This document shows positions 1 through 11,834 of a stretch of DNA of 11,834 nucleotides, piece after piece (position 1 is the stretch's first letter; every line of letters begins with the position of its first letter). The DNA comes from Promethearchaeota archaeon. Its GTDB lineage: Archaea > Asgardarchaeota > Hermodarchaeia > Hermodarchaeales > Hermodarchaeaceae. The stretch covers positions 1-11,834 of the forward strand of contig JBHLMI010000046.1 in NCBI GenBank assembly GCA_048938295.1, given 5' to 3'. Below the pieces are notes generated by a model, which had not been told where the DNA came from, ran no database searches, and was given only the letters and a program-made list of their open reading frames with translations. The translations under genes and the position numbers were made by a program.

Positions 1-864
1 CTTTACTTGACGATTAAACTCGGTAAAGAAACCGTCGACCTTCTAATGGATCGCGCACCGTCGGATTTGACCGTTCCTATCCGGCAGGCGATTGAACAAA
101 TCGATGGCATCAAAGAGTGTAGCCGAATCCGACTGCGAAAAGCCGGACCAATGACCTTCGTCGATATTGTATGCCATGCCGAGCCAGCTATTCCCCTCCA
201 CACTGCACATGAGATTAGCGTCAATGCCCGAAAAACCGCAGAACAAATCATAGGTCGTGCCGATGTCGTCGTCCATATGGACCTCGTCTCAAAGCAGCAT
301 CCACACTTGGGTCAAACCATTCGAAAAGAAACGAAGAACTTCCCTTGGATCAAAGACCTCCAGGGCATCGACAGCTTCGAAACAGACGAGTACATCACCC
401 TTGTGTTAGAACTCCAGATTGACCCACAAATGAGACTCGACGAAGCCCATCACCTCGTTTCAAAATTTGAAACCCATATCCAATCACAATACCCTTTCAT
501 CAAAGAAATCACCACCCACCTTGAACCCAGCCGCGCTCCCACACCAACCACTCACGATCCTAAAACCATCGAAACCCAAATCATTGCACTCGTACACAAA
601 AGCCCACAACTACACAATTGCCATGACATCCAACTGATCCCCCTCTCAGAGAACCTCTACAACCTTACCTTCCACTGTGAAGCACCTCCAAGTTTCACAG
701 TCGAAGAACTCCACGCCGCAACCACCCTCCTCGAAGACGAAATCCGCGAACAACTCCCAATCTTCTCACAAATCATCATTCACAACGAACCACTAAAACG
801 CAAAACGAAGACCAAAAAGGATCAAAAAGAGAAGGAGATTCCTCCCAAAAAAACGAATACCTAA
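1..864 (+). CDS. Cation diffusion facilitator (FieF/CDF) family transporter, C-terminal part with three tandem ZT_dimer-like domains; 5' end outside the window
   Basis: Frame is open from base 1. End of the last TM helix (LYLTIKLGKETVDLLMD) is followed by three repeats of the CDF cytoplasmic pattern (R.RKAG..FVD...H..AH; LDEAHHLV...THLEP; LHNCHDI...IIIHNEP). The last 22 aa are a K-rich tail encoded by an actin relic. Confidence 0.85.
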   Translation, partial: LYLTIKLGKETVDLLMDRAPSDLTVPIRQAIEQIDGIKECSRIRLRKAGPMTFVDIVCHAEPAIPLHTAHEISVNARKTAEQIIGRADVVVHMDLVSKQHPHLGQTIRKETKNFPWIKDLQGIDSFETDEYITLVLELQIDPQMRLDEAHHLVSKFETHIQSQYPFIKEITTHLEPSRAPTPTTHDPKTIETQIIALVHKSPQLHNCHDIQLIPLSENLYNLTFHCEAPPSFTVEELHAATTLLEDEIREQLPIFSQIIIHNEPLKRKTKTKKDQKEKEIPPKKTNT

Positions 865-920
865 ATGCAGTGATGGATCACTCTAGCTCCTCACTCCATG
901 TCCTTATTTTTTAGTTACCT
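824..920 (-). repeat. Actin 3'-end relic R1 (strongly decayed)
   Basis: aaaaagagaaggagattcctcccaaaaaaacgaatac is followed by cta aat gca gtg atg gat cac tct agc tcc tca ctc cat. The minus strand reads M-E-*-G-A-R-V-I-H-H-C-I-* versus actin [12 protein letters not shown]. One hairpin arm (cctccc) and the spacer are retained, and agt tac (T,V) sits at 913-918. Confidence 0.7.
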
Positions 921-967
921 ACGTAAATCTGAAAGGTTAAAGAGGAAGCTTCCACCATTACCCACAA

Positions 968-1945
968 ATGCGGGTTTTATTAACCGGAGCCTTTGGAAAT
1001 ATCGGGGAAAGTACCCTATTAGCTCTATTTGAACAGAGCCATAAGATACGCTGCTTTGATTTACTCACAGCACAAAATGAGAAAACTGCCAAGAGACTGC
1101 TTAAGTATGGCGATTTTGACACTGTTTGGGGTGATGTTCGCGATGTCGACACCACTAGGAAGATCGTTGAGAACGTCGAATGTATCATCCATTTGGCGGC
1201 AATTCTTCCCCCTGTAAGCGAACGAGACGCTGAATTTACCAATGCCGTGAATGTTGGCGGCACAGCGCGGCTAATCGAAGCCGCAGAAACATTATCGGTA
1301 AAACCCAAATTCGTCTATGCTAGCTCCATATCAATATTTGGACCCACAATGCATCTTCCTCCACCAAGGACCGCGGAGGATCCCCTTAGTCCAACCGACG
1401 TCTATACCACCACGAAGGTCAAATGTGAAACGGCGCTCCGGGCGAGTACCCTTCCCTGGACCATCTTACGTTTGGCAGCTGTCCCTCCCATACGCATCGG
1501 TGGCGACATCGACCCGATGTTATTCGAAATGCCCCTTGACCAACGAATCGAATTTGTCCACACCCGCGATGTCGGCACAGCCTTTGCTAACGCTGTAACA
1601 GCCGACACCACGGGCAAGGTGCTCCTAATTGGAGGCGGGAAATCCAGTCAGATGCATCAACGCGAATTCATCGCCAAACCCCTTAACGCCATGGGAGTCG
1701 GAATGCTCCCTGAATCTGCCTTCCGCGTCGCCACGAAGCCTGAAGAGTGGTATTATACCGATTGGCTGGACACCACCGAATCCCAACACCTCTTGCAATA
1801 CCAAAACCACACCTTCGACGAATACGTCGACGACCTCAAAGACGCCATCGGATTCAAACGCTACTTCGCACGACTCTTCCGAGGTTTCGCCCAAAAACGC
1901 CTCCTCGCCCAATCACCCTACTACCAAGAACCGAAGAATTCCTAA
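968..1945 (+). CDS. NAD-dependent epimerase/dehydratase (extended SDR) family protein
   Basis: N-terminal Rossmann motif VLLTGAFGNIG, IIHLAA, NVGGT, YASSISIFG and catalytic YxxxK (YTTTK). Confidence 0.92.
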   Translation: MRVLLTGAFGNIGESTLLALFEQSHKIRCFDLLTAQNEKTAKRLLKYGDFDTVWGDVRDVDTTRKIVENVECIIHLAAILPPVSERDAEFTNAVNVGGTARLIEAAETLSVKPKFVYASSISIFGPTMHLPPPRTAEDPLSPTDVYTTTKVKCETALRASTLPWTILRLAAVPPIRIGGDIDPMLFEMPLDQRIEFVHTRDVGTAFANAVTADTTGKVLLIGGGKSSQMHQREFIAKPLNAMGVGMLPESAFRVATKPEEWYYTDWLDTTESQHLLQYQNHTFDEYVDDLKDAIGFKRYFARLFRGFAQKRLLAQSPYYQEPKNS

Positions 1946-2039
1946 ATAGGATTCCACTCACCATCCTAGGCTAAGCTTATCTGTACAACAAGAAGTATCA
2001 TGAAAGTCAGTAATGAATGGGATTACTCATTTCTGAAGG

Positions 2040-2750
2040 ATGGATAAGGTGACGCGTTGGTCACAACAAGAAATCAGCCAGTTAGCACCGATTTTAATGC
2101 AGATGGAGCAAGATCTGTACCCTCTTAACGAAAAACAAATTTGTGTTCTCTGTAGTGGATTTGGAGAACTCGTGTTTCGTCTGGATAAAAAAATGAGGCA
2201 AAAAGGAAAAATTATCGGACTTGAACGCAGCAGAAAAGCATTACAGCAAGCCAAAACCTTTGCAGCACAAAATCAATTTCGTGCTCAAAGTTCCTTTCAA
2301 TTAATAACTAAGAATAAACTCCCTTATGCGAACCACACCTTCGATGCCCTCGTCAGTGAATTTATTATCTATCCAACGCCACTTCCAACCGAAATTGGCC
2401 AGTTGGAGATGGCTCGCGTAGTAAAACCAGGTGGAACAATCCTTCTCACTGATGTTTTACGAACACACCCCATGTCTAAAAAGGAGACCCAGGCTCTCAA
2501 GCACATCGATATTCACTATCTTTGTGACGCTACATTTTCAGATTTTCAAACCTGGATGACAGCCGCAGGCCTCACTAACATTACAATTCGTGATTTTACA
2601 CCTTTATTGCAAACGATTTGGAGCCAACGGGCGGCAAAAAACACAGATAAGACCCACCGAGTGGGGTACAACCTCCTCCTTCACGATAACAAACTAAAAT
2701 TAGGTGAAGGCATTTTCTATATTTACGCCAAAGGCAATACACCCCCATAG
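2040..2750 (+). CDS. Class I SAM-dependent methyltransferase (Methyltransf_11/UbiE-like)
   Basis: Degenerate motif I (VLCSGFGEL), acidic post-I (IIGLE), LPYANHTFDALVSE, EMARVVKPGGTILLTD. Confidence 0.85.
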   Translation: MDKVTRWSQQEISQLAPILMQMEQDLYPLNEKQICVLCSGFGELVFRLDKKMRQKGKIIGLERSRKALQQAKTFAAQNQFRAQSSFQLITKNKLPYANHTFDALVSEFIIYPTPLPTEIGQLEMARVVKPGGTILLTDVLRTHPMSKKETQALKHIDIHYLCDATFSDFQTWMTAAGLTNITIRDFTPLLQTIWSQRAAKNTDKTHRVGYNLLLHDNKLKLGEGIFYIYAKGNTPP

Positions 2751-2808
2751 CCATCCGGTTTAATTCATAAGGTGAAACAGAATAGTATTGTATAGAGAGG
2801 CTGGGTTT

Positions 2809-3069
2809 ATGTCCGAACAAAGCATGAAAACACCCATTGGAAAAGTCACCAACTATTACTCAAAAATCAATGTAGCCGTCATCGAATTATCCGCCCCTTT
2901 GAAACAAGGTGACGAAATCGCCATCAAAGGCGCAACGACGGAGTTCACACAAACCGTGGAATCCATGCAAATCGAACGCAAAAACATTGAATCCTCACAA
3001 GCGGGTCAAGCCATCGGATTAAAAGTCAAAGAGCGAGTCCGAATAGGCGATACCGTCTACCGCATTTAG
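2809..3069 (+). CDS. Small translation-elongation-factor-like protein (EF-Tu domain II-like / U32 peptidase C-terminal-like beta-barrel)
   Basis: IGKVTNYYSKINVAVIELSAPLKQGDEIAIKG...VESMQIERKNIESSQAGQAIGLKV..RVRIGDTVY. ATG 2809 is preferred over the TTG at 2788. Confidence 0.8.
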   Translation: MSEQSMKTPIGKVTNYYSKINVAVIELSAPLKQGDEIAIKGATTEFTQTVESMQIERKNIESSQAGQAIGLKVKERVRIGDTVYRI

Positions 3070-3110
3070 TAAAACTAGCCCCCTGAGTTTCTAATCACAC
3101 CACTCAACCA

Positions 3111-3166
3111 AACAAAAAAAAGGAGGCCACGCGCCCCACCTGAAAACCGCGATGAAAGACAGTAGC
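3111..3166 (-). repeat. Actin 3'-end relic R2 (barely recognisable)
   Basis: A-tract plus ggagg half-hairpin, then ctg aaa acc gcg atg aaa gac agt agc. The minus strand reads A-T-V-F-H-R-G-F-Q versus actin A-G-V-I-H-R-C-F-* (5/9 identical). It occupies the expected intergenic position. Confidence 0.45.
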
Positions 3167-3232
3167 TCTGAGTGAATCTTTCTCTGCACGCTTGAAATTA
3201 ATAAAAACCCATACTAAAAAGAAGAGGCTGCA

Positions 3233-3988
3233 ATGATGTCTCAACGTGCCTTGGTACGTGAACCCGGAGCTCAATTTACTCACTGCATTTCTTCACACCC
3301 ATTACATCATACCGTCAATGTTGCTCGAGCACGAACACAACATTCAGAATACGTTAACATGTTAACTGAACTGGGGCTTGAAGTCATTCAGTTGCCTCGT
3401 GACGATACTTACCCAGATTCTTGTTTTGTTGAAGATACCGCTGTTATCCATTCTGGTAAAGCCCTCATAACCCGCCTTACCAAGCAGAGTCGTCGAGGCG
3501 AAGAAGATTCAGTTGAGGAACTACTTCAAGAGTATTTACCTGTGCAGCGCATCATGGCTCCAGGCACCCTCGAGGGAGGAGATGTGATTCGGTTACCCAC
3601 CCGAATAATCTGCGGGATTAGCCAGCGTACAAATCGTGCTGGCATGGAACAGATGCAGACTTATTTTGGCGTGCCTGTCGATACCATTACTGATCCACAC
3701 CTCATTCACCTGAAAAGTCATGTAACCTACCTGAACCATAACATCATGCTCACCACTCAGACCTACACACACCACCCAATCCTAGCTGACTTCGAAGTCC
3801 TCGTCGTCCCCGAAAACGAGCAATACGCAGCCAACACTCTCACCATCGACGACACCGTGATCATGCTTACCGGATACCCGCAAACCCAACAACTTATCAA
3901 AGACACAGGTTTCGAAGTTATCAGCCTAAATATAAGCGAAATCACCAAATGCGACGGCGCCCTAACCTGCCTATCACTCCTATTCTGA
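3233..3988 (+). CDS. Dimethylarginine dimethylaminohydrolase / amidinotransferase family protein
   Basis: PDSCFVED, LEGGDV, HLKS and C-terminal GALTCLS (catalytic Cys) motifs. Confidence 0.92.
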   Translation: MMSQRALVREPGAQFTHCISSHPLHHTVNVARARTQHSEYVNMLTELGLEVIQLPRDDTYPDSCFVEDTAVIHSGKALITRLTKQSRRGEEDSVEELLQEYLPVQRIMAPGTLEGGDVIRLPTRIICGISQRTNRAGMEQMQTYFGVPVDTITDPHLIHLKSHVTYLNHNIMLTTQTYTHHPILADFEVLVVPENEQYAANTLTIDDTVIMLTGYPQTQQLIKDTGFEVISLNISEITKCDGALTCLSLLF

Positions 3989-4014
3989 GCCGTTCGCATT
4001 CACACAGATAAACT

Positions 4015-4114
4015 AGAGAAAAAAGGGAGGATACGCCGCCCAAAAAAACGGTTACCGTAGAAGCCGCGAGGGATTACTCCAGCACCCTACTCCATACGCT
4101 CAATGCCGTAACCT
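4015..4114 (-). repeat. Actin 3'-end relic R3 (decayed)
   Basis: A-tract, imperfect hairpin gggagg-atacg-ccgccc, spacer aaaaaaacggttacc, then gta gaa gcc gcg agg gat tac tcc agc acc cta ctc cat. The minus strand reads M-E-*-G-A-G-V-I-P-R-G-F; cgt aac (T,V) sits at 4107-4112. Confidence 0.8.
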
Positions 4115-4180
4115 ACTAGGAATCTTCAAACACTCACTATTGGTTACAGCAAAAAGTTGACTGTGTTGATGTTATTAAAC

Positions 4181-4197
4181 ATTCAATTTGAATATAA
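4181..4197. promoter_or_regulatory. Inverted repeat ATTCAA-T-TTGAAT overlapping a TATA-like AATATAA upstream of acr3; candidate repressor operator/promoter
   Basis: Perfect 6-1-6 palindrome at 4181-4193, about 80 bp upstream of the ATG at 4271. Function is inferred. Confidence 0.35.
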
Positions 4198-4270
4198 GAC
4201 CAAAGAGTTGATATTTTCTTCTAATTCGGATAACCGTACTCGACTAGAATTCAAATACGGAATTAAAGCA

Positions 4271-5317
4271 ATGTCAAATAACAATGAAGCACCAGTTGTA
4301 ATGGGGCTTTTTGAGAAATATCTAACTTTTTGGATTCTTTCTTTTATGGCTCTAGGTTTGCTCGTTGGATGGCTCTTCCCCACATTCGCTATCACATTAG
4401 CTAGCCTGCAATTTGCAGGATTTTCAATTCCTATTGCGATTTGCCTTTTTTTCATGATGTTTCCAACCCTCATCAACATTGAGTACCGTGAAATCAAGTA
4501 CGCCGTGAAATATCCAAAACCCCTCATTATCACACTCGTAGCTAACTGGATAGTGAATCCCATCCTCGGTTTTGTGCTCGCCAGCACCATACTTGCAGCT
4601 AACCCACAATACGTATTCGGAATTATTCTACTTGCAGTATCACCGTGCACCGCAATGGTCCTCTTTTGGAATAAGTACGCCAAGGGCAACATCAATCTCG
4701 GATTGGTAATCACTTCCATTAACTCCATTCTCATCCTGTTCCTTTATGCACCCCTTGCCTCCTTCTTTATTGGCCTCTATGTTCCCGTACCCTTCATTAC
4801 TCTCCTAGTTGGCACTATGTTCTTCCTCGTCCTCCCCCTAATAACCGGGATTCTCACCAAACGTTATATCTACAAAACAAAAGGTCAAGAATGGTTTGCC
4901 AGATCCTTCAAGCCCATTCTTGACAAAATTGCCATCTTTGCTCTCCTTCTCACACTCGTCGTTCTCTTTTCCTTCCAAGGCCAAGTCATCCTCACCCAAC
5001 CGCTGAATGTCCTCTGGATCAGCAGTGTTCTCTTACTAAACTATGTTATCATGTTCACCTCCGTGTTTGTCATCTGCTACAAACTCGGATTTACCTACAA
5101 ACAAACCGTCACCGTCACAATCATCTCCAGCAGCTCACATTTTGAAATCGCCATAGCCACCGCCATCCTCCTCTTTGGCCCAGGATCCGCCGCCGCATTC
5201 GCCACCGTCATCGGCGTCCTCTGGGAAGTTCCACTCATGGTCGCCTTCATCAAACTCGCCCTCAGACTACAACCAAAGCTTTGGAAACCCCCAGCATCAA
5301 GTCCTCCGAACCCCTAA
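4271..5317 (+). CDS. acr3: ACR3 family arsenite efflux transporter
   Basis: FEKYLTFWI, IPIAICLFFMMFP, LVANW, GIILLAVSPCTAMVLFW, SSSHFEIAIATA, IGVLWEVPLM. ATG 4271 is preferred because the ORF-track extension from 4157 is not protein-like. Confidence 0.93.
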   Translation: MSNNNEAPVVMGLFEKYLTFWILSFMALGLLVGWLFPTFAITLASLQFAGFSIPIAICLFFMMFPTLINIEYREIKYAVKYPKPLIITLVANWIVNPILGFVLASTILAANPQYVFGIILLAVSPCTAMVLFWNKYAKGNINLGLVITSINSILILFLYAPLASFFIGLYVPVPFITLLVGTMFFLVLPLITGILTKRYIYKTKGQEWFARSFKPILDKIAIFALLLTLVVLFSFQGQVILTQPLNVLWISSVLLLNYVIMFTSVFVICYKLGFTYKQTVTVTIISSSSHFEIAIATAILLFGPGSAAAFATVIGVLWEVPLMVAFIKLALRLQPKLWKPPASSPPNP

Positions 5318-5333
5318 TCCCATTCACCCAACT

Positions 5334-5373
5334 AAAAAAAGAGAAAGGGGAGGCCAAGCCTCCCAAAGTTACT
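5334..5373 (-). terminator. Actin-type terminator: left (terminator/spacer) half of split relic R4, now terminating the 5369-5686 gene
   Basis: aaaaaaagagaaaggggaggccaagcctcccaaagttactt matches the actin A-tract, hairpin and spacer (gttactt versus gctactt in R6) but no actin codons follow. Confidence 0.8.
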
Positions 5374-5686
5374 TGAGGTCACTCACATCAATACCCGGTC
5401 GGAGTAATCGAATACTGATATCATCGAGAAGCCCGGAAGAAATGGCCATCATTTTTTGCACGTCCGCATTTCCATAGAACTTTGCGAACTTCTCCATGCT
5501 CTCAAAGGGGATCCAATACATGATTCGCCCAGTATTGTCCGCCCAAAACGTTACGTCAGGACTAATCAATCCCTTTTTCAGCCATTCCTCTGTTTTCCCA
5601 CCCAGCTTCTCTTGCCAATCTAACAGTTGTTTCCCTCGAACCTCATCCTTAGGTGTACGATACTCAACACACAAGACGCATTTCAA
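5369..5686 (-). CDS. Hypothetical protein (~105 aa)
   Basis: Open frame. A perfect Shine-Dalgarno GGAGGTGA (plus strand tcacctcc, 5692-5699) lies 5 nt before a TTG at 5686, giving MKCVLCVEYRTPKDE... The stop lies inside the relic spacer. Confidence 0.7.
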   Translation of the reverse strand: MKCVLCVEYRTPKDEVRGKQLLDWQEKLGGKTEEWLKKGLISPDVTFWADNTGRIMYWIPFESMEKFAKFYGNADVQKMMAISSGLLDDISIRLLRPGIDVSDLK

Positions 5687-5882
5687 TGATCTCACCTCCA
5701 TTCCAGTAACCATCGAAGTGAAAAAGCCCATGCAGGTAGAGTAACTGATGCCATTCGGCCCTCCAAAGGCTAGCCACCCTTATGACAAATATAGTATTTA
5801 TATCCGAGGTTTTACGAATTTCCACCCGACAAAAACCCAGAGGCTGCAGAAGTCAGGCCACAGCATTTCCTTAACACAACCA

Positions 5883-5937
5883 CTAGGGAAGCACCGATGA
5901 ATCACATCAGCACTCTGCCCCATGTATCATGTAACCC
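5883..5937 (-). repeat. Right (coding) half of split actin relic R4
   Basis: cta gg gaa gca ccg atg aat cac atc agc act ctg ccc cat gta ... tgt aac cc. The minus strand reads Y-M-G-Q-S-A-D-V-I-H-R-C-F. No hairpin is adjacent. Confidence 0.8.
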
Positions 5938-5996
5938 TCGTTGACCTGCGTAATTTTATATCCACCAAGTGTGTAGAACACCTGAGGAAGAGCAGA

Positions 5997-6443
5997 ATGG
6001 CCACAGCAGGTTATGCCCGATATGAAATCGAAGGTCACATCGAAGAAGTCATCAATGTTTTGGAGCCACAATTTGGCGACTCCTTCACCCGAACCTATGA
6101 ACATAATGGACGATGCGTCCTTGCCATCCTCCTCACCGATCAATACGCATTTCTAACCAACAGCCACGTTGCTGTCACAATCATCCTTCGAACCCACGAT
6201 TACCTAGTCATCATGGACGTCATCGGCTACGGCGGTAGCAGCGGATTGATAGGCCTCGACTGGGGAAGCAACAAAAGCATCGTCCACGACGTTCACAGAC
6301 ACCTAACTAAACATGGCTTCAAAATCACTCGCACCCAGTTCACCGAACTCTCCAAACACCATGACCATCGCATAAAACAGTACCCACGAACCGAACCCAT
6401 CCTCGCAAATGACCCAGACTACTTCGAACCGCCAATCGATTAG
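5997..6443 (+). CDS. Hypothetical protein, DUF6054-like
   Basis: The segment VAVTIIL...MDVIGYGGSSGLIGLDWGSNKSIV recalls the GG..G.F..DWGAE motif of DUF6054 (from memory, not searched). The start may be ATG 5997 or ATG 5922, which lies inside relic R4. Confidence 0.6.
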   Translation: MATAGYARYEIEGHIEEVINVLEPQFGDSFTRTYEHNGRCVLAILLTDQYAFLTNSHVAVTIILRTHDYLVIMDVIGYGGSSGLIGLDWGSNKSIVHDVHRHLTKHGFKITRTQFTELSKHHDHRIKQYPRTEPILANDPDYFEPPID

Positions 6444-6551
6444 CAAAATGGTAAATCGTCGAGAATATTCAATAGACCCAAAATTACCATTAGCACAGAA
6501 ACATGCTCGACTCAGAAAAAAAGCAGAACAATTCAAACAAAAAAGAACGCG

Positions 6552-6658
6552 AAAAAAGAATGAAAGGGGAGGCAAGCCTCCCAAAAAAATCGACTACTTT
6601 AGAAGCACCGATGAATAACATCAGCACCCTAGTCCAGGTATTCTTTCTTCGTAACCCA
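6552..6658 (-). repeat. Actin 3'-end relic R5 (type A UTR, internal nonsense codon)
   Basis: A-tract, perfect hairpin gggagg-caag-cctccc, stop at 6599-6601. The minus strand reads W-V-T-K-K-E-Y-L-D-*-G-A-D-V-I-H-R-C-F-*. Confidence 0.95.
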
Positions 6659-6744
6659 CTTCACTGTCGTATTTATCTACGGAAGTTGTTGAGTTTAGAC
6701 CACCAACTAAGCATAGTACCTCACCAAGAATTGTTGGAGCTAAA

Positions 6745-7203
6745 TCAGTGAGAACGAACAAAGGGAACATAATCAGTCATAGGCACTTCTCTCCCTAACG
6801 TCCGTAATGCCAAGACTAACTGTCCACGATGGTAGGTCGCATGATTTACCAAATGAAACACAAACTCCACCACCGATATTGAACGCCCCTGCCCTACCTC
6901 CACAACACCCTCAGAACCCAACTTCTTAAAATATCGCCTCCATCGCTGCTGCATCTCCTCAACCACACCAATAATCATGTTCACACTCATCGCAGAAAAC
7001 TCCGGTTCGTCCCAATCCTCACCGGACACATCCACCAACCACTCCCAATAATCATAGGCCAAATGGACACAAATATCACGGATACTCCGCGAATAAGCGC
7101 CCAACGGAGCAACACACTCCTCCTCCGAAACCTCAACCACCACACCAAAAACCACCTTGTCAGCCCAACTCAAGTATTCAAACAGTCGATCTACACACTC
7201 CAT
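6745..7203 (-). CDS. DinB/YfiT-like family protein
   Basis: SIRDICVHL and HLVNHATYHRGQ His triad, LRTLGREVPMTDY C-terminus. ATG 7203 is preceded by GGGTGGT. Confidence 0.88.
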   Translation of the reverse strand: MECVDRLFEYLSWADKVVFGVVVEVSEEECVAPLGAYSRSIRDICVHLAYDYWEWLVDVSGEDWDEPEFSAMSVNMIIGVVEEMQQRWRRYFKKLGSEGVVEVGQGRSISVVEFVFHLVNHATYHRGQLVLALRTLGREVPMTDYVPFVRSH

Positions 7204-7279
7204 AGACTTACCACCCAAACATCAAACCAATACAACCACCTACCACCCACAATAAATAAAAAATCAGGCTAAACCCCTA

Positions 7280-7387
7280 GAAAAGAGAAAAAAGGGAGGA
7301 CAAGCCTCCCAAAAATTCGGCTACTTAGAAGCAGCGATGAATTACGCCAGCACCCTGCTCCTTGTACTCCTTTTTGGTCACCCACAA
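7280..7387 (-). repeat. Actin 3'-end relic R6 (type A UTR, intact reading frame)
   Basis: A-tract, hairpin gggagg-acaag-cctccc, stop at 7325-7327. The minus strand reads [20 protein letters not shown], with 9 synonymous and 2 non-synonymous codon differences from actin. Confidence 0.97.
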
Positions 7388-7394
7388 CCATTTT

Positions 7395-8180
7395 TTAGGA
7401 AATCCGTTTGAGGAAATCTAAAACCACGGTATAAAATAGCTCACATCGTTTGTCTACATAATTCATGTGTGTCATATCGGGGATGATGGCTAATTCTGCC
7501 TGGGGTATCAAGCTAAGCATTTCGATCTGAGTTTCAAGGGGAACCGCTTCATCTTTATCCCCCACAATGAGGAGCGTAGGCACCTCAATCTTTGTAATAT
7601 CGTCCTGCGGATAGTTCGATGGATCCCTCCACATTTGAAGCTGCTTGTTAACGAAGATTTCCAAATACTCAGACCCGTAGACGTGACTATGCACAGCCCT
7701 CAAAGTCTTCTTAAGTTCTGGTTGGGAGTCAAGCCATTGGGGAACTGACAAAAGACCCTCCCGCGTCTTTTGTGTCAATTCATGCATTCCCCCACCCACA
7801 ACGAGGGCCGTAATGAAGTGAGGATACCGGATACCAATTTCTAACGCTATTTGCCCGCCATCACTCCAGCCACCGATAATCGGATTCACCAGATCTAAAG
7901 CCTTGGCTAACGCCACAACATCATCGGCCATGACTCGATAATTCATTAAGTCCTGGGGATTATCCGTGCGACCACACCCTCGACAATCCGGAGTAATTAC
8001 GCGAAAATGCTCTGCGAATCGCTTCCTAAGATCCCCCCACCCCAGACTCCCTGTAAGCAACCCACCATGGACCAGAATCAACGGAATCCCCTTGCCCCGA
8101 TCCTCATAATACATACGAAGCCCATTCGCATCCACATAGTGCCCAAACTCAGGTAACACCTTCAGCTCATCGTTCTTCAT
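7395..8180 (-). CDS. Alpha/beta fold hydrolase
   Basis: VHGG oxyanion motif, PDCRGCGRT, nucleophile elbow GWSDGG, GDKDE acid, THM His. SD-like GAGGTG before the ATG. Confidence 0.92.
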   Translation of the reverse strand: MKNDELKVLPEFGHYVDANGLRMYYEDRGKGIPLILVHGGLLTGSLGWGDLRKRFAEHFRVITPDCRGCGRTDNPQDLMNYRVMADDVVALAKALDLVNPIIGGWSDGGQIALEIGIRYPHFITALVVGGGMHELTQKTREGLLSVPQWLDSQPELKKTLRAVHSHVYGSEYLEIFVNKQLQMWRDPSNYPQDDITKIEVPTLLIVGDKDEAVPLETQIEMLSLIPQAELAIIPDMTHMNYVDKRCELFYTVVLDFLKRIS

Positions 8181-8321
8181 GTCAACACCTCGTAACCATT
8201 AAAGATCCCAGCCACTAAAAGGTTAGCCAGTAAGCCACCCAATAGATCCTTCTCTACCACTCAAACTTAGGCACATGAAACTAAGGGAAAAAGCAGAATA
8301 AATCGCACAACAAAGAGAACG

Positions 8322-8422
8322 AAAAAAAGAGAAAGAGGGGGAGGCACAGCCTCCCAATAATTGAAGACCGTTTAGAAGCAGCGATGAATAACACCAGCGC
8401 CCTGTTCCATGTATACTTTTTT
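8322..8422 (-). repeat. Actin 3'-end relic R7 (type B UTR)
   Basis: A-tract, hairpin gggaggc-aca-gcctccc, spacer aataattgaagaccgt, stop at 8372-8374. The minus strand reads [16 protein letters not shown]. Confidence 0.97.
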
Positions 8423-8590
8423 ACAAACCGAGTATATGCTTGAGATCATCACGGCACTTTTCGTTTAGCGAGAATGCCTAGCCTCTCCAGAATGTAATTA
8501 ACAGGCCTAGCTCTATGGCCTCCAGTAGTTTTCTTAGAGAATAATTGAGAAGATTAATAATCCACGTTCTCAACTCTATCTGTGATTGAA

Positions 8591-8878
8591 ATGACTCTCA
8601 AAACAAAACAGGCGAAACCAGCTCCAAGCAGCCCTGCCACTGCCATTATCCTAATTGAAGTCTTACCCAAAGAACATCTCAACGTCTTACATATCGTTAA
8701 ACAAGACCTTGAAAAAATTGAAGGCGTCAAAGATGTGTGCGGTATTTTTGGCACCTGGGACCTATCAGCCATCATCGAAGAAGAGACTTATGAATCCCTC
8801 AAAAACAAAGTCATCGACGAGGTACGCGCCGTGCCTGGCGTTGGCAAAACTGAAACGCTCCTCCGATTTCCACTCTAA
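8591..8878 (+). CDS. Lrp/AsnC ligand-binding (RAM) domain protein, no HTH
   Basis: TAIILIEV.P...LEKIEGVKDVCGIFGTWDLSAIIE...VIDEVRAVPGVGKTETL. Start is ATG 8591 (GTG 8582 is an alternative). Confidence 0.88.
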   Translation: MTLKTKQAKPAPSSPATAIILIEVLPKEHLNVLHIVKQDLEKIEGVKDVCGIFGTWDLSAIIEEETYESLKNKVIDEVRAVPGVGKTETLLRFPL

Positions 8879-8967
8879 CATTGACTCAAAACAGCGAAAT
8901 ACTATCCTTAAGGATGACTTCAACAACCATCAATAGAAGAACTATGCAGTGAATGAAAACATCCATT

Positions 8968-9063
8968 AGAAAAAAGAAAAAGGGGAGGCACAGCCTCCCA
9001 ATAGGTGAAGACCGTTTAGAAGCACCGGTGATTAACGCCAGCGCCCTGCTCCATATTTTTCTT
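8968..9063 (-). repeat. Actin 3'-end relic R8 (type B UTR)
   Basis: A-tract, hairpin gggaggc-aca-gcctccc, spacer aataggtgaagaccgt, stop at 9016-9018. The minus strand reads M-E-Q-G-A-G-V-N-H-R-C-F-*, with an apparent 3-nt deletion in the preceding codons. Confidence 0.95.
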
Positions 9064-9142
9064 CCCGCTTACACCAATGGATTATTATAAGAAATTAAAG
9101 AGCAAATGTTGCTATGAATCCCAGAATGGTTGGTGAAACCCA

Positions 9143-9538
9143 ATGAAGCAAAGTGCAGGAAGAATCACTCGTCTTTGGCTCGGTATGGTCGAAGTCTCGG
9201 ATCTAGACAAAGCCCTCCAATTTTACCATGAGGTTCTTGGCCTACCCATAGCACTCGACGCAAGAATGTTTGATCACGCCGAAGTTGGCCCCGAAGAACC
9301 GTTAGCAAAAATCGGCCTATATGCTAGTGGTAAAAAAGCAGAGAAAATACGCCGAACAGGCATTGTCTTGGATACCGATGACATCAACGCCCTATACAAT
9401 AGACTAACCCGACACGGAGTAAAATTTACCACAAAGCCGACTAAGATGCCATGGGGCGGCATATCCGCAAAATTCCTCGACCCCGACAACAACGAATTCG
9501 AGGTCGTGCAAGACCCCCACCATTACTCACGAAAATAA
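9143..9538 (+). CDS. VOC family (glyoxalase/bleomycin resistance) protein
   Basis: VSDLDKALQFYHEVLGL, IVLDTDDINALY..L...GVKF...P..MPWGG....FLDPDNNEFEV. Confidence 0.93.
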   Translation: MKQSAGRITRLWLGMVEVSDLDKALQFYHEVLGLPIALDARMFDHAEVGPEEPLAKIGLYASGKKAEKIRRTGIVLDTDDINALYNRLTRHGVKFTTKPTKMPWGGISAKFLDPDNNEFEVVQDPHHYSRK

Positions 9539-9553
9539 AACACCAACAACACC

Positions 9554-9657
9554 AAAAAAAGAGAAAGAGGGGGAGGCACAGCCTACCAATAAGTGAAGAC
9601 CGTCTAGAAGCAGCGGTGGATCACGCTAGCGCCCCGTTCCATGTATTCTTTCTTTGT
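9554..9657 (-). repeat. Actin 3'-end relic R9 (type B UTR), nearest to actin
   Basis: A-tract, hairpin with one mismatch (gcctacc), spacer aataagtgaagaccgt, TAG stop at 9604-9606. The minus strand reads T-K-K-E-Y-M-E-R-G-A-S-V-I-H-R-C-F-*. Confidence 0.97.
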
Positions 9658-9839
9658 AGCTACTGGTCAACTGGTGTTTGGTTTTAATCACCTTTTCCAG
9701 AGAACCATAACGCATAAAAGTAAACCAAATTCGGCGCTCCGCCAGAGGTGACCCCATCATAAAAATCGATTATGAAAAACTATCAACCTACCTCACCGAA
9801 GACGAACTAGATCAACTCGATGCCGCAACGTATCATGTC

Positions 9840-10202
9840 ATGCGCTTCAAATGGCTCGCCGACGACTGCACCACCTGGGACGACATAATCCACGCCCTGC
9901 ACCACCGAATCACCGCCATTGAAGACCTCAAAGCCCAAGGCGCAATCTTAGCCCAAAACAACAACGACGACTACATCTTCTATGAAATCCCCGGCGAAAC
10001 CGCCATCTTCGCCACCCTCACCACCCTCACTGACACTGAGTGCACCTTCCAACTCGACGATGGTGCCACCATCACCACCCCACGACCCGACTGGACCGAC
10101 TTCACACACGACCACCTCCACTGCCGCCTTGTCCTCCTCATCACCGAAACCGGCGAACTCAACGGCGTCTCCCTTCCCCACCACGTCCCGAGCGACCCAT
10201 AA
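9840..10202 (+). CDS. Hypothetical protein, translationally coupled to the downstream endonuclease gene
   Basis: 120-aa ORF whose stop overlaps the next ATG (TAATG, 10200-10204). The frame stays open upstream to 9711 with a protein-like sequence (KIDYEKLSTYLTEDELDQLD). Confidence 0.7.
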   Translation: MRFKWLADDCTTWDDIIHALHHRITAIEDLKAQGAILAQNNNDDYIFYEIPGETAIFATLTTLTDTECTFQLDDGATITTPRPDWTDFTHDHLHCRLVLLITETGELNGVSLPHHVPSDP

Positions 10203-11335
10203 TGATCACCGGCACACCCTACTTTCCTAAAAAATGTCCAACTTGTCCGATTTACCGCCTTCGCCAAACTACCCAGCCTGGCACTAAAGCCACCTATCAA
10301 CGCAAATTTGACATCACAACCGAACTCCAAATCGTCTGCGACTACACCTGCAAAGAAAAAAGCAGCCTCCAACTTGCGCAAGAAAAAGACTGCACCCAAG
10401 ACACCATCCAAAACATCGTCCGCAGATTCAATAAACCCCTCCGCTCTTTCCGCGACGCCCAACTCCTCCGCCGCGGATCCAAAGACCTCACCTTCCCCCT
10501 CTCACCCGAAGTCCCCCAGCTCCTCCAACACCCTAAGGTAAAGCCCTTTCTACCGCAATTAATAGCTGTCATGCTCCTCACCGACGGTGTCGCCGGCTAC
10601 CGCCAAGGTCACCGCCCTTACCTTACCTTCACCAATAAAGCGGAAACCCTCCACGCCATCTTCGCCGACCTCATCCACTTCCACTACAACCAACCCCCAT
10701 CCGCCTACTTCAAAAAATACTGGAGCAGAGCAAAGAAACAAGGTTCCTGTGCCTTCTACACTACCTATAACCGCATAGCCGACACACATCCCATCCTTAA
10801 CGAACTCCTTACACTCAGCCCCACATATCGGACACAACCCAAACTCGGACAATCATGGGAAAACTACCTCCAGCAAACCCCACAACCCACACTCCAATTC
10901 TTATCAAACCCAACCATACCTACACAAATTCACAACTTCGTAATCCAACTAGGCATGAGCGCCGAAGGTTCCATTAGCCCCATCTTTGTGTCAGATAGTC
11001 GATTCCCTTATCCACATCTAACATTGGGCTGCAAACATCCATTACTCAAAGAACAATGGAAAACATATCTCGAAATCCAAGGCTTTTCATTCAACAAAAC
11101 CACCGAAATGATTGAAACCGCACAACTCCAGCAAGCGAAGAAATTCCTCAATCTTGGTGGTTTTTTCAACGGTGTAAAAGTGAAAGCTGGCAGTTATTAT
11201 GAAGGACTCGACAAACAAGCCGTCTTAAAAGCAATACTCATTGACAGAAAAACCCATCCAATCGACCCAGCACTTCTAAAACAGGAAAAACATAAAATCT
11301 TACGCCAACGAGCATTACAATTCAAAAAATCCTAA
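10202..11335 (+). CDS. Free-standing double-motif LAGLIDADG (homing/intein-type) endonuclease-like protein with N-terminal CxxC and HTH
   Basis: Motif 1 LIAVMLLTDG (10559-10588) and motif 2 VIQLGMSAEG (10940-10969) both keep the acidic residue. HTH-like IVCDYTCKEKSSLQLAQEKDCTQDTIQNIVRRFNKPLRS and CPTC lie upstream. Start is set at ATG 10202 (377 aa) by the TAATG coupling. Confidence 0.75.
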   Translation: MITGTPYFPKKCPTCPIYRLRQTTQPGTKATYQRKFDITTELQIVCDYTCKEKSSLQLAQEKDCTQDTIQNIVRRFNKPLRSFRDAQLLRRGSKDLTFPLSPEVPQLLQHPKVKPFLPQLIAVMLLTDGVAGYRQGHRPYLTFTNKAETLHAIFADLIHFHYNQPPSAYFKKYWSRAKKQGSCAFYTTYNRIADTHPILNELLTLSPTYRTQPKLGQSWENYLQQTPQPTLQFLSNPTIPTQIHNFVIQLGMSAEGSISPIFVSDSRFPYPHLTLGCKHPLLKEQWKTYLEIQGFSFNKTTEMIETAQLQQAKKFLNLGGFFNGVKVKAGSYYEGLDKQAVLKAILIDRKTHPIDPALLKQEKHKILRQRALQFKKS

Positions 11336-11350
11336 TCTCCACTCACACGA

Positions 11351-11399
11351 AATAAAAAAAATGAAAAAGGGGAGGCAAGCCTCCCAAAAATCAGCTACC
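11351..11399 (-). terminator. Actin 3' UTR and terminator: hairpin GGGAGG-CUUG-CCUCCC followed by U-tracts (type A UTR)
   Basis: Plus strand gggagg caag cctccc at 11370-11385, flanked by A-runs at 11351-11368 (U-tract on the minus strand), 14 nt after the actin stop. Confidence 0.85.
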
Positions 11400-11834
11400 T
11401 TAGAAGCACCGATGAATAACACCAGCGCCCTGTTCCATGTATTCTTTCTTTGTCACCCACATTCGCTGAAACGTCTTTAGAGAGGCTAGGATGCTGCCGC
11501 CGATCCAGACGGAGTACATGCGTTCGGGTGGGGCGACGATTTTGACTTCGACGTTTTCGGGGATGGATTCGATGATTTCTTTGCGGAGGCGTTCTTTGAG
11601 TCCGGGGAACATGGTGGTGCCGCCGGAGAGGACGATGTTCGCGTAGAGGTCGCGGCGGAGGTCGACGTCGCATTTGTGGACGGCTTCGACGATGGCGTCG
11701 TCGAGGGGTTGGGCTTCGATGCCGATGGCGCCGGGGTTGAATAGGACTTCGGGTCCCTGGAAGCGTTCGGCGCCGACGGTGAGGGTGGAGCCGTCGGGGA
11801 GCATGTATTTCTTTTCCATGCCGGCGACTTTTTC
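11400..11834 (-). CDS. Eukaryote-like actin (Asgard/lokiactin-like), C-terminal ~145 codons; 5' part outside the window
   Basis: [67 protein letters not shown], terminal HRCF. High GC with C-ending codons is consistent with high expression. The prokaryotic gene neighbourhood argues for an archaeon. Confidence 0.95.

Follow-up and report, generated by a model that had tools for sequence, protein, structure and literature searches.

What leaves the plus strand of an archaeal gene array rich in C and A in a series of saw-teeth, whichever way the genes are read? The question is raised by an 11,834-nt stretch of DNA (hereafter the window; contig JBHLMI010000046.1, C18 in our numbering) from the 2.5-Mb genome of an Asgard archaeon (Promethearchaeota) whose nearest named actin loci are those of Hermodarchaeota. 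The right end of the window is the 3′ part of a Lokiactin-type actin, a host gene on the minus strand (11400–11834; Pfam Actin, E = 3.5e-53). About ten eroded copies of the actin tail and its terminator follow on the left with ordinary accessory genes in between, and directly convergent with actin stands a gene predicted to encode a free-standing LAGLIDADG homing endonuclease (10202–11335, plus strand). We consider it probable that the skew is the cumulative, strand-polar mutational footprint of homing-endonuclease break repair in an array resembling the WHO elements of yeast.

The bias was scored on synonymous C/T and A/G pairs in our own gene calls and corrected by genome-wide codon frequencies, which removes amino-acid effects. 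The window has a GC skew of −0.225, the most extreme among 66 contigs, and an AT skew of +0.151; an absolute skew above 0.4 in 500-nt windows is reached by 0.4% of the genome. Leftward from a relic terminator, the plus-strand C/A excess fell in 200-nt bins up to 1000 nt from +0.28 through +0.23, +0.12 and +0.07 to +0.03 (Spearman p = 2e-14). The observed contrast of 0.152 was reached in none of 5000 random relic placements (null 0.000 ± 0.048). These results bear out the saw-tooth that an earlier note on this DNA had described from hand counts, all six of which were exact on recount. They also bear out its independence from gene orientation, the minus-strand DinB-family and hydrolase genes carrying the same plus-strand bias as the plus-strand genes. 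A gradient at all gene ends, which the note had named as what would speak against its reading, was not found: genome-wide, the within-gene gradient is close to zero (right end minus rest, 0.004 ± 0.080 in 1470 genes). The saw-tooth is present, too, in the actin arrays of relatives (loci L001–L003, L089 and L090).

The same data bear on selection, either for C-rich, G-poor RNA, which could, e.g., help to terminate convergent transcription, or for optimal codons. Such selection would suit the C-richness of plus-strand cargo genes toward their 3′ ends, which the earlier note had seen correctly in the dimethylarginine dimethylaminohydrolase (DDAH) and acr3 genes, as well as the C-ending codons of actin. 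However, in minus-strand genes the complementary bias is found at the 5′ end, ordinary gene ends are flat, highly expressed genes are not C-ending, and the strength at one and the same site differs strongly among congeners. We therefore share the view of the note that codon optimisation is not at work, and regard selection as extremely unlikely. The acr3 gene shows instead what position does: its last third scores +0.29 and +0.25 where a relic follows, vs. a mean of about +0.06 in seven orthologues without a neighbouring relic, from which the 3′ gradient is mostly missing, and its substitutions comprise 17 T>C vs. 4 C>T changes. The skew is a mutational scar acquired by position, each unit having been marked while it adjoined the 3′ end of actin.

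As the cause of this scar, the earlier note had proposed heavy read-through past the actin terminator, with deamination (C>T and A>G) of the exposed non-template strand. The downstream polarity fits this proposal, as the actin-sense strand is G/T-rich; so do the decay over about 0.6–1 kb from the relic terminators and the shift of both transition pairs. Yet the bias reverses upstream of the terminator, not at a transcription-unit boundary. The reversal lies at 11477–11495 (best estimate 11483), within the actin coding sequence, with the relic breakpoint about 20–35 nt and the terminator about 100 nt downstream of it. Before it, 88 of 90 synonymous codons end in C or A, vs. 10 of 24 after it (change-point fit, Fisher p = 6e-10), the last 26 or so codons being richer in G and T. 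A genome-wide matched filter put the actin peak at 11483 (11446–11501), and seven related actin loci show the same reversal (333/398 vs. 89/169 C/A-ending codons). The outward 5′–3′ strand from the relic start point is G(/T)-rich on both sides of the reversal; read-through leaves this mirror bias, upstream and in divergent genes, without explanation.

Other strong terminators gave no support to read-through either. A strict scan for hairpin terminators, with 3 hits in the whole genome, lacked power, and T-tracts were used instead: at 145 such terminators lying away from flips, the G/T excess of the sense strand downstream was +0.008. It was +0.05 and −0.04 downstream of 16S rRNA and +0.02 and +0.05 behind two thermosome genes, and the ribosomal-protein clusters and EF-1a had about zero bias on their own non-template strand. 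Finally, at four-fold sites of the actin-sense (outgoing) strand G rises 2.1-fold, T stays at 0.7–1.05 times its level, A and C fall, and GC content goes up, whereas deamination dominated by C>T gives a different outcome. Of the G/T enrichment described in the earlier note, the G half thus stands and the T half does not; likewise, its scar of residence behind the actin terminator survives as a position-acquired scar, while read-through deamination as the cause of it is most improbable.

Reversals like that in actin are found elsewhere in the genome. Those with the polarity of actin (C/A to the left, G/T to the right) outnumber the opposite kind 13 to 1 at z > 10, and 112 positions to none at a two-sided z > 5. 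The flips are sharp, often lie in the middle of genes (actin, porB, hppA), and their bias continues into divergently transcribed neighbours, with a signal that decays within 1–2 kb (from 0.26 to 0.05 by 1.8 kb). The same protein motif is flipped in paralogues, in two PorB and two HdrA proteins. Of nine intein hosts, five had a mirror-image flip of the same polarity on their exteins, and such flips were also seen at the ends of host genes with LAGLIDADG-like neighbours, namely an Arf-like GTPase gene (contig C1) and, accompanied by a relic, MvhA (contig C37). Two flips without an element of their own were compared with outside data: the porB flip interval (22466–22533) includes the nucleotide (about 22498) at the codon where the PorB intein is inserted in other organisms, and the radA flip (amino acid 255) is the site of a 59-nt bulge-helix-bulge intron in the relative G013. 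The porB flip occurs with variable strength in all 18 family members and in 1 of 20 other Asgards (L307 of genome G044, from another Asgard family, z = 6.2; the only one of these 20 porB genes with the flip), and being lineage-specific it is not an effect of protein structure.

The radA intron of G013 (L184:673–735) is canonical in form; its removal restores the frame, and it sits exactly at the flip of the intron-less strains. Among candidates for a common DNA motif at the flips, the top 6-mer matched C-ending Gly and Ile codons; we read it as a by-product of the bias and rejected it.

A further explanation would make the flips sites of local replication initiation, at origins or at recombination-primed forks, with ordinary leading/lagging skew and with endonucleases that merely co-occur in conserved genes. 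The polarity is indeed that of a bidirectional origin, with a G/T-rich leading strand, and several flips have no visible element. Against this, the signal decays within 1–2 kb and not on the scale of a replichore, and the flips match intein and intron insertion sites to the codon and recur at paralogue motifs. Furthermore, no cdc6 gene lies within 10 kb of actin (ORB boxes were not searched for), and the signal near cdc6 genes is weak. We regard replication initiation as unlikely; a fork primed at a break is a variant of the homing-repair model and no alternative to it.

Under the homing-repair model, the enzyme would cut susceptible alleles of actin close to their 3′ end, and the broken 3′ ends would prime outward synthesis, so that the outward strand would always be the new or the displaced one. 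Uncorrected A>G and C>T changes, the former stronger, would accumulate on this strand. Damage to a resection overhang predicts the opposite polarity, and the damage is therefore placed in the new or the displaced donor strand, where polymerase G:T mispairs (new strand) or base damage (displaced strand) are candidate chemistries; the stronger A>G shift may slightly favour mispairs. Synthesis from the actin side would copy the tail, the terminator, the endonuclease and the upstream cargo gene, which would appear as a plateau tapering off across a further 0.6–1 kb or so. With each new homing event the unit would be displaced further down the array, and deletion of the old endonuclease would bring the scarred cargo end up against the relic terminator, so that each unit shows a single tooth. 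Re-cutting after loss of the enzyme may have contributed to the scar. More generally, there is about an even chance that Hermodarchaeota repair endonuclease breaks by a strand-biased, G-inserting synthesis that escapes mismatch correction, which would leave a mirror scar at each repeatedly used homing site, whether it is now occupied or has long been empty.

We assign the product of 10202–11335 to the LAGLIDADG endonucleases from its features and its predicted structure (ESM Atlas, 0.92 to LAGLIDADG clusters, with a TM of 0.83 by row); the reading frame had no Pfam match. Relatives of the gene are likewise convergent with actin. No Hint or intein match was obtained at E ≤ 1, and a zinc finger appeared only at E = 0.86; by analogy, the protein would work like WHO while standing outside the WHO/HO protein family proper. 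Its gene bears a scar plateau of +0.18 to +0.32. Two stubs of the endonuclease C-terminus, both on the plus strand, are apparently remnants of deleted older copies: one at 8233–8310 (positions 346–371 of the family hidden Markov model (HMM), E = 2e-5 against window fragments) and one at 6448–6543, directly after the stop of the DUF6054 gene (HMM 341–372, E = 2e-8). The stubs indicate that older units, too, held the enzyme between cargo and terminator. They also account for a caveat of the earlier note, which had seen the youngest-unit peak at about 9800–10900 and not at the terminator: we found a plateau at 9800–11300, and the peak of the endonuclease unit has the same offset in the arrays of relatives. 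On this reading, the youngest unit shows the offset because it still has its endonuclease, whereas older units lost theirs, with stubs kept at the two sites above.

The cassettes could also pass through RNA or single-stranded DNA, by reverse transcription or rolling circle initiated at the repeat, and pick up their errors at that stage. A reset of the bias at each repeat, and cargo that looks like mobile cassettes, would fit such a route. We regard this as very unlikely, as it leaves the mirror upstream half in host genes, the intein exteins and the single-copy porB and hppA unexplained. Moreover, our gene calls for the 21-kb actin locus include no recombinase or reverse transcriptase.

Several observations weigh against homing repair as the source of the scar. 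Within the window, a methyltransferase gene (2040–2750) has no gradient and the AsnC gene is flat, both being exceptions to the saw-tooth. Actin is C/A-rich along all of its 1.1 kb, beyond the typical decay of about 1 kb; a second site or selection may contribute to this long stretch. Four of the nine intein hosts carry no scar, and inspection of relatives out to 1.5 kb from the flips of hppA, SecY, a second MvhA and an Arf-like gene showed no endonuclease, intron or intein. Polarising substitutions from relatives failed except in acr3, with synonymous sites saturated between species (p about 0.6). As to porB and hppA, no intein or neighbouring endonuclease was seen in 18 relatives, and there was no split porB among the matches listed from 300 Asgard genomes.

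The structure of the array can be followed from actin leftward. The unit duplicated as relics is the live actin tail with its 3′ untranslated region, a hairpin (11370–11385) and T-tract terminator (11331–11465, minus strand). The relics have a common start point and the repeated part is only about 110 nt, while the skewed cargo is single-copy within the window. The current first-slot cargo, a 120-aa open reading frame (ORF) (9840–10202, plus strand), has the strongest scar (+0.35 to +0.45). Relics on the minus strand, each with a terminator, follow at 9554–9657, 8970–9063, 8322–8422, 7281–7386 and 6553–6659. To the left of the first lies a glyoxalase gene with a scarred 3′ part (9250–9538, plus strand; thirds of the gene +0.09, +0.20 and +0.26), and to the left of the second the AsnC gene (8591–8878) with its uniformly mild scar. 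Next come an alpha/beta hydrolase gene scarred at its 5′ end (7900–8180, minus strand; thirds from left to right +0.06, +0.17 and +0.29) and the DinB-family gene with its upstream spacer (6745–7260, minus strand; +0.22, +0.40 and +0.32), where 6 G stand against 44 C at 7141–7260. The DUF6054 gene (5997–6443, plus strand) is scarred as well (+0.18, +0.35 and +0.26).

Further left, a relic is split around a small minus-strand gene (5334–5937, minus strand; terminator half 5334–5367, codon half 5888–5927), and to its left lies the scarred last third of acr3 (4900–5317, plus strand). A relic with a terminator remnant (4018–4095, minus strand) stands beside the DDAH/amidinotransferase gene, whose scar is limited to the 3′ third (3740–3988, plus strand; thirds −0.02, −0.04 and +0.32). 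The remaining scarred genes are on the plus strand. A U32-C-like gene has a terminator remnant at 3123–3137 (2809–3137 together), and an NAD epimerase gene has a scarred 3′ end that runs up to an eroded boundary motif at about 1941–1961 (1620–1961 together; third +0.26; 200-nt bin +0.40). The epimerase peak is at 1801–1945, where the short boundary motif survives but no actin codons do. Lastly, a CDF transporter gene with a scarred 3′ part is followed by a terminator (830–846) and the oldest relic (862–897; 480–897 in all).

Some side observations concern the actin locus and its relatives. The 120-aa ORF and the endonuclease gene overlap, stop on start (10199–10204), an arrangement of translational coupling, and the gene in that slot differs among relatives. 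In L003:5661–6791 the actin-linked endonuclease is broken into two frames, by ongoing decay or by an assembly error. Relative to a 99.86% identical assembly (L088), 4 of 16 differences fall within 13 nt of actin (11763–11775), all at the same codon position. A Hermodarchaeota actin has a 31-nt insert at about codon 47 (L004:3215–3244) whose removal restores the frame; it looks bulge-helix-bulge-like by eye, and the full motif is absent from the minimum-energy fold. An Rfam search of the window gave no matches.

Other loci of the genome have related arrangements. A second WHO-like locus on C37 (L082:1–2600) comprises the MvhA 3′ end, a convergent LAGLIDADG-like ORF of 612–636 aa and an MvhA-tail relic (2467–2590). 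Short-repeat arrays with saw-tooth skew were also seen on C31 (L081, host off the contig) and on C2 (L087:8900–11600, with relics of a hydrogenase large-subunit tail). On C62 (L083:16878–19280), rps19 is followed by a co-directional 618-aa ORF containing a helix-turn-helix, the most G/T-rich gene of the genome at four-fold sites and a candidate endonuclease in the other orientation. The match to 23S rRNA (L103:4860–6419) contains a LAGLIDADG ORF that lies next to a flip, and the 16S rRNA match (L102:36–1167) is about 620 nt longer than its model positions; the excess lengths suggest introns.

If homing repair is indeed the source, the array offers direct genomic evidence, with a fixed polarity, on whether such repair is mutagenic, a question left open after the yeast mitochondrial diversity data. 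Cut sites could be predicted from the DNA letters to within about 30 nt, at about 11483 in actin and at about 20 two-sided sites in the genome, giving a map of past homing targets and an age record of the actin-array cassettes. Selfish endonucleases would rewrite synonymous sites of core genes, an Asgard actin among them, and would shift the base composition of accessory genes that are captured; studies of codon bias, replication origins and phylogeny in this lineage can be misled by this scar. It would also give a view of an undescribed Asgard break-repair pathway.

Enrichment of G and T on one strand with a distance gradient is known from transcription-associated mutagenesis and from single-strand exposure in vertebrate mitochondrial DNA. 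Unlike transcription-associated mutagenesis, the scar is not tied to transcription, reverses inside genes and has no net gain of T. Our literature search, with subscription papers mostly outside it, returned no account of homing sites with a mirror-image scar.

The closest parallel in organisation is the WHO elements at yeast FBA1, where every homing event brings in a new host 3′ end and displaces the older units, with a cut slightly upstream of the fragment starts (Coughlan et al., 2020; PMC7282813). Both systems have a free-standing LAGLIDADG gene behind an essential gene and a row of 3′ fragments that share a start slightly downstream of the cut, in which older units and endonuclease copies are decayed (PMC7282813; bioRxiv 10.64898/2026.08.13.744650). 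We liken the actin reversal, 20–35 nt upstream of the relic breakpoint, to this WHO cut. Our array differs in being archaeal, in its actin host, in a fragment of about 60 nt vs. 400 nt, in keeping its cargo genes and in having no detected Hint domain, and neither WHO paper mentions skew. Raised diversity at mobile-intron sites is already published: Repar and Warnecke (2017) reported a mutational gradient on host exons around mobile-intron targets, which they ascribed to error-prone repair or co-conversion (PMC5378118). Strand polarity was not part of it. Their measure was the density of single-nucleotide polymorphisms, whereas here the composition is strand-polar and mirror-image, with synonymous sites near saturation. 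The scar shares with GRINS an intense GC skew that is correlated with TA skew and pronounced at synonymous positions. In GRINS these skews are strongest at third codon positions and were linked to gene conversion, and the errors proposed for the daughter strand are C>T and A>G (Nivina et al., 2021; PMC8256042). However, GRINS are duplicated regions of >500 bp and >80% identity with no defined anchor, while the scar described here is borne by single-copy sequence, anchored at an endonuclease target and mirror-symmetric about it.

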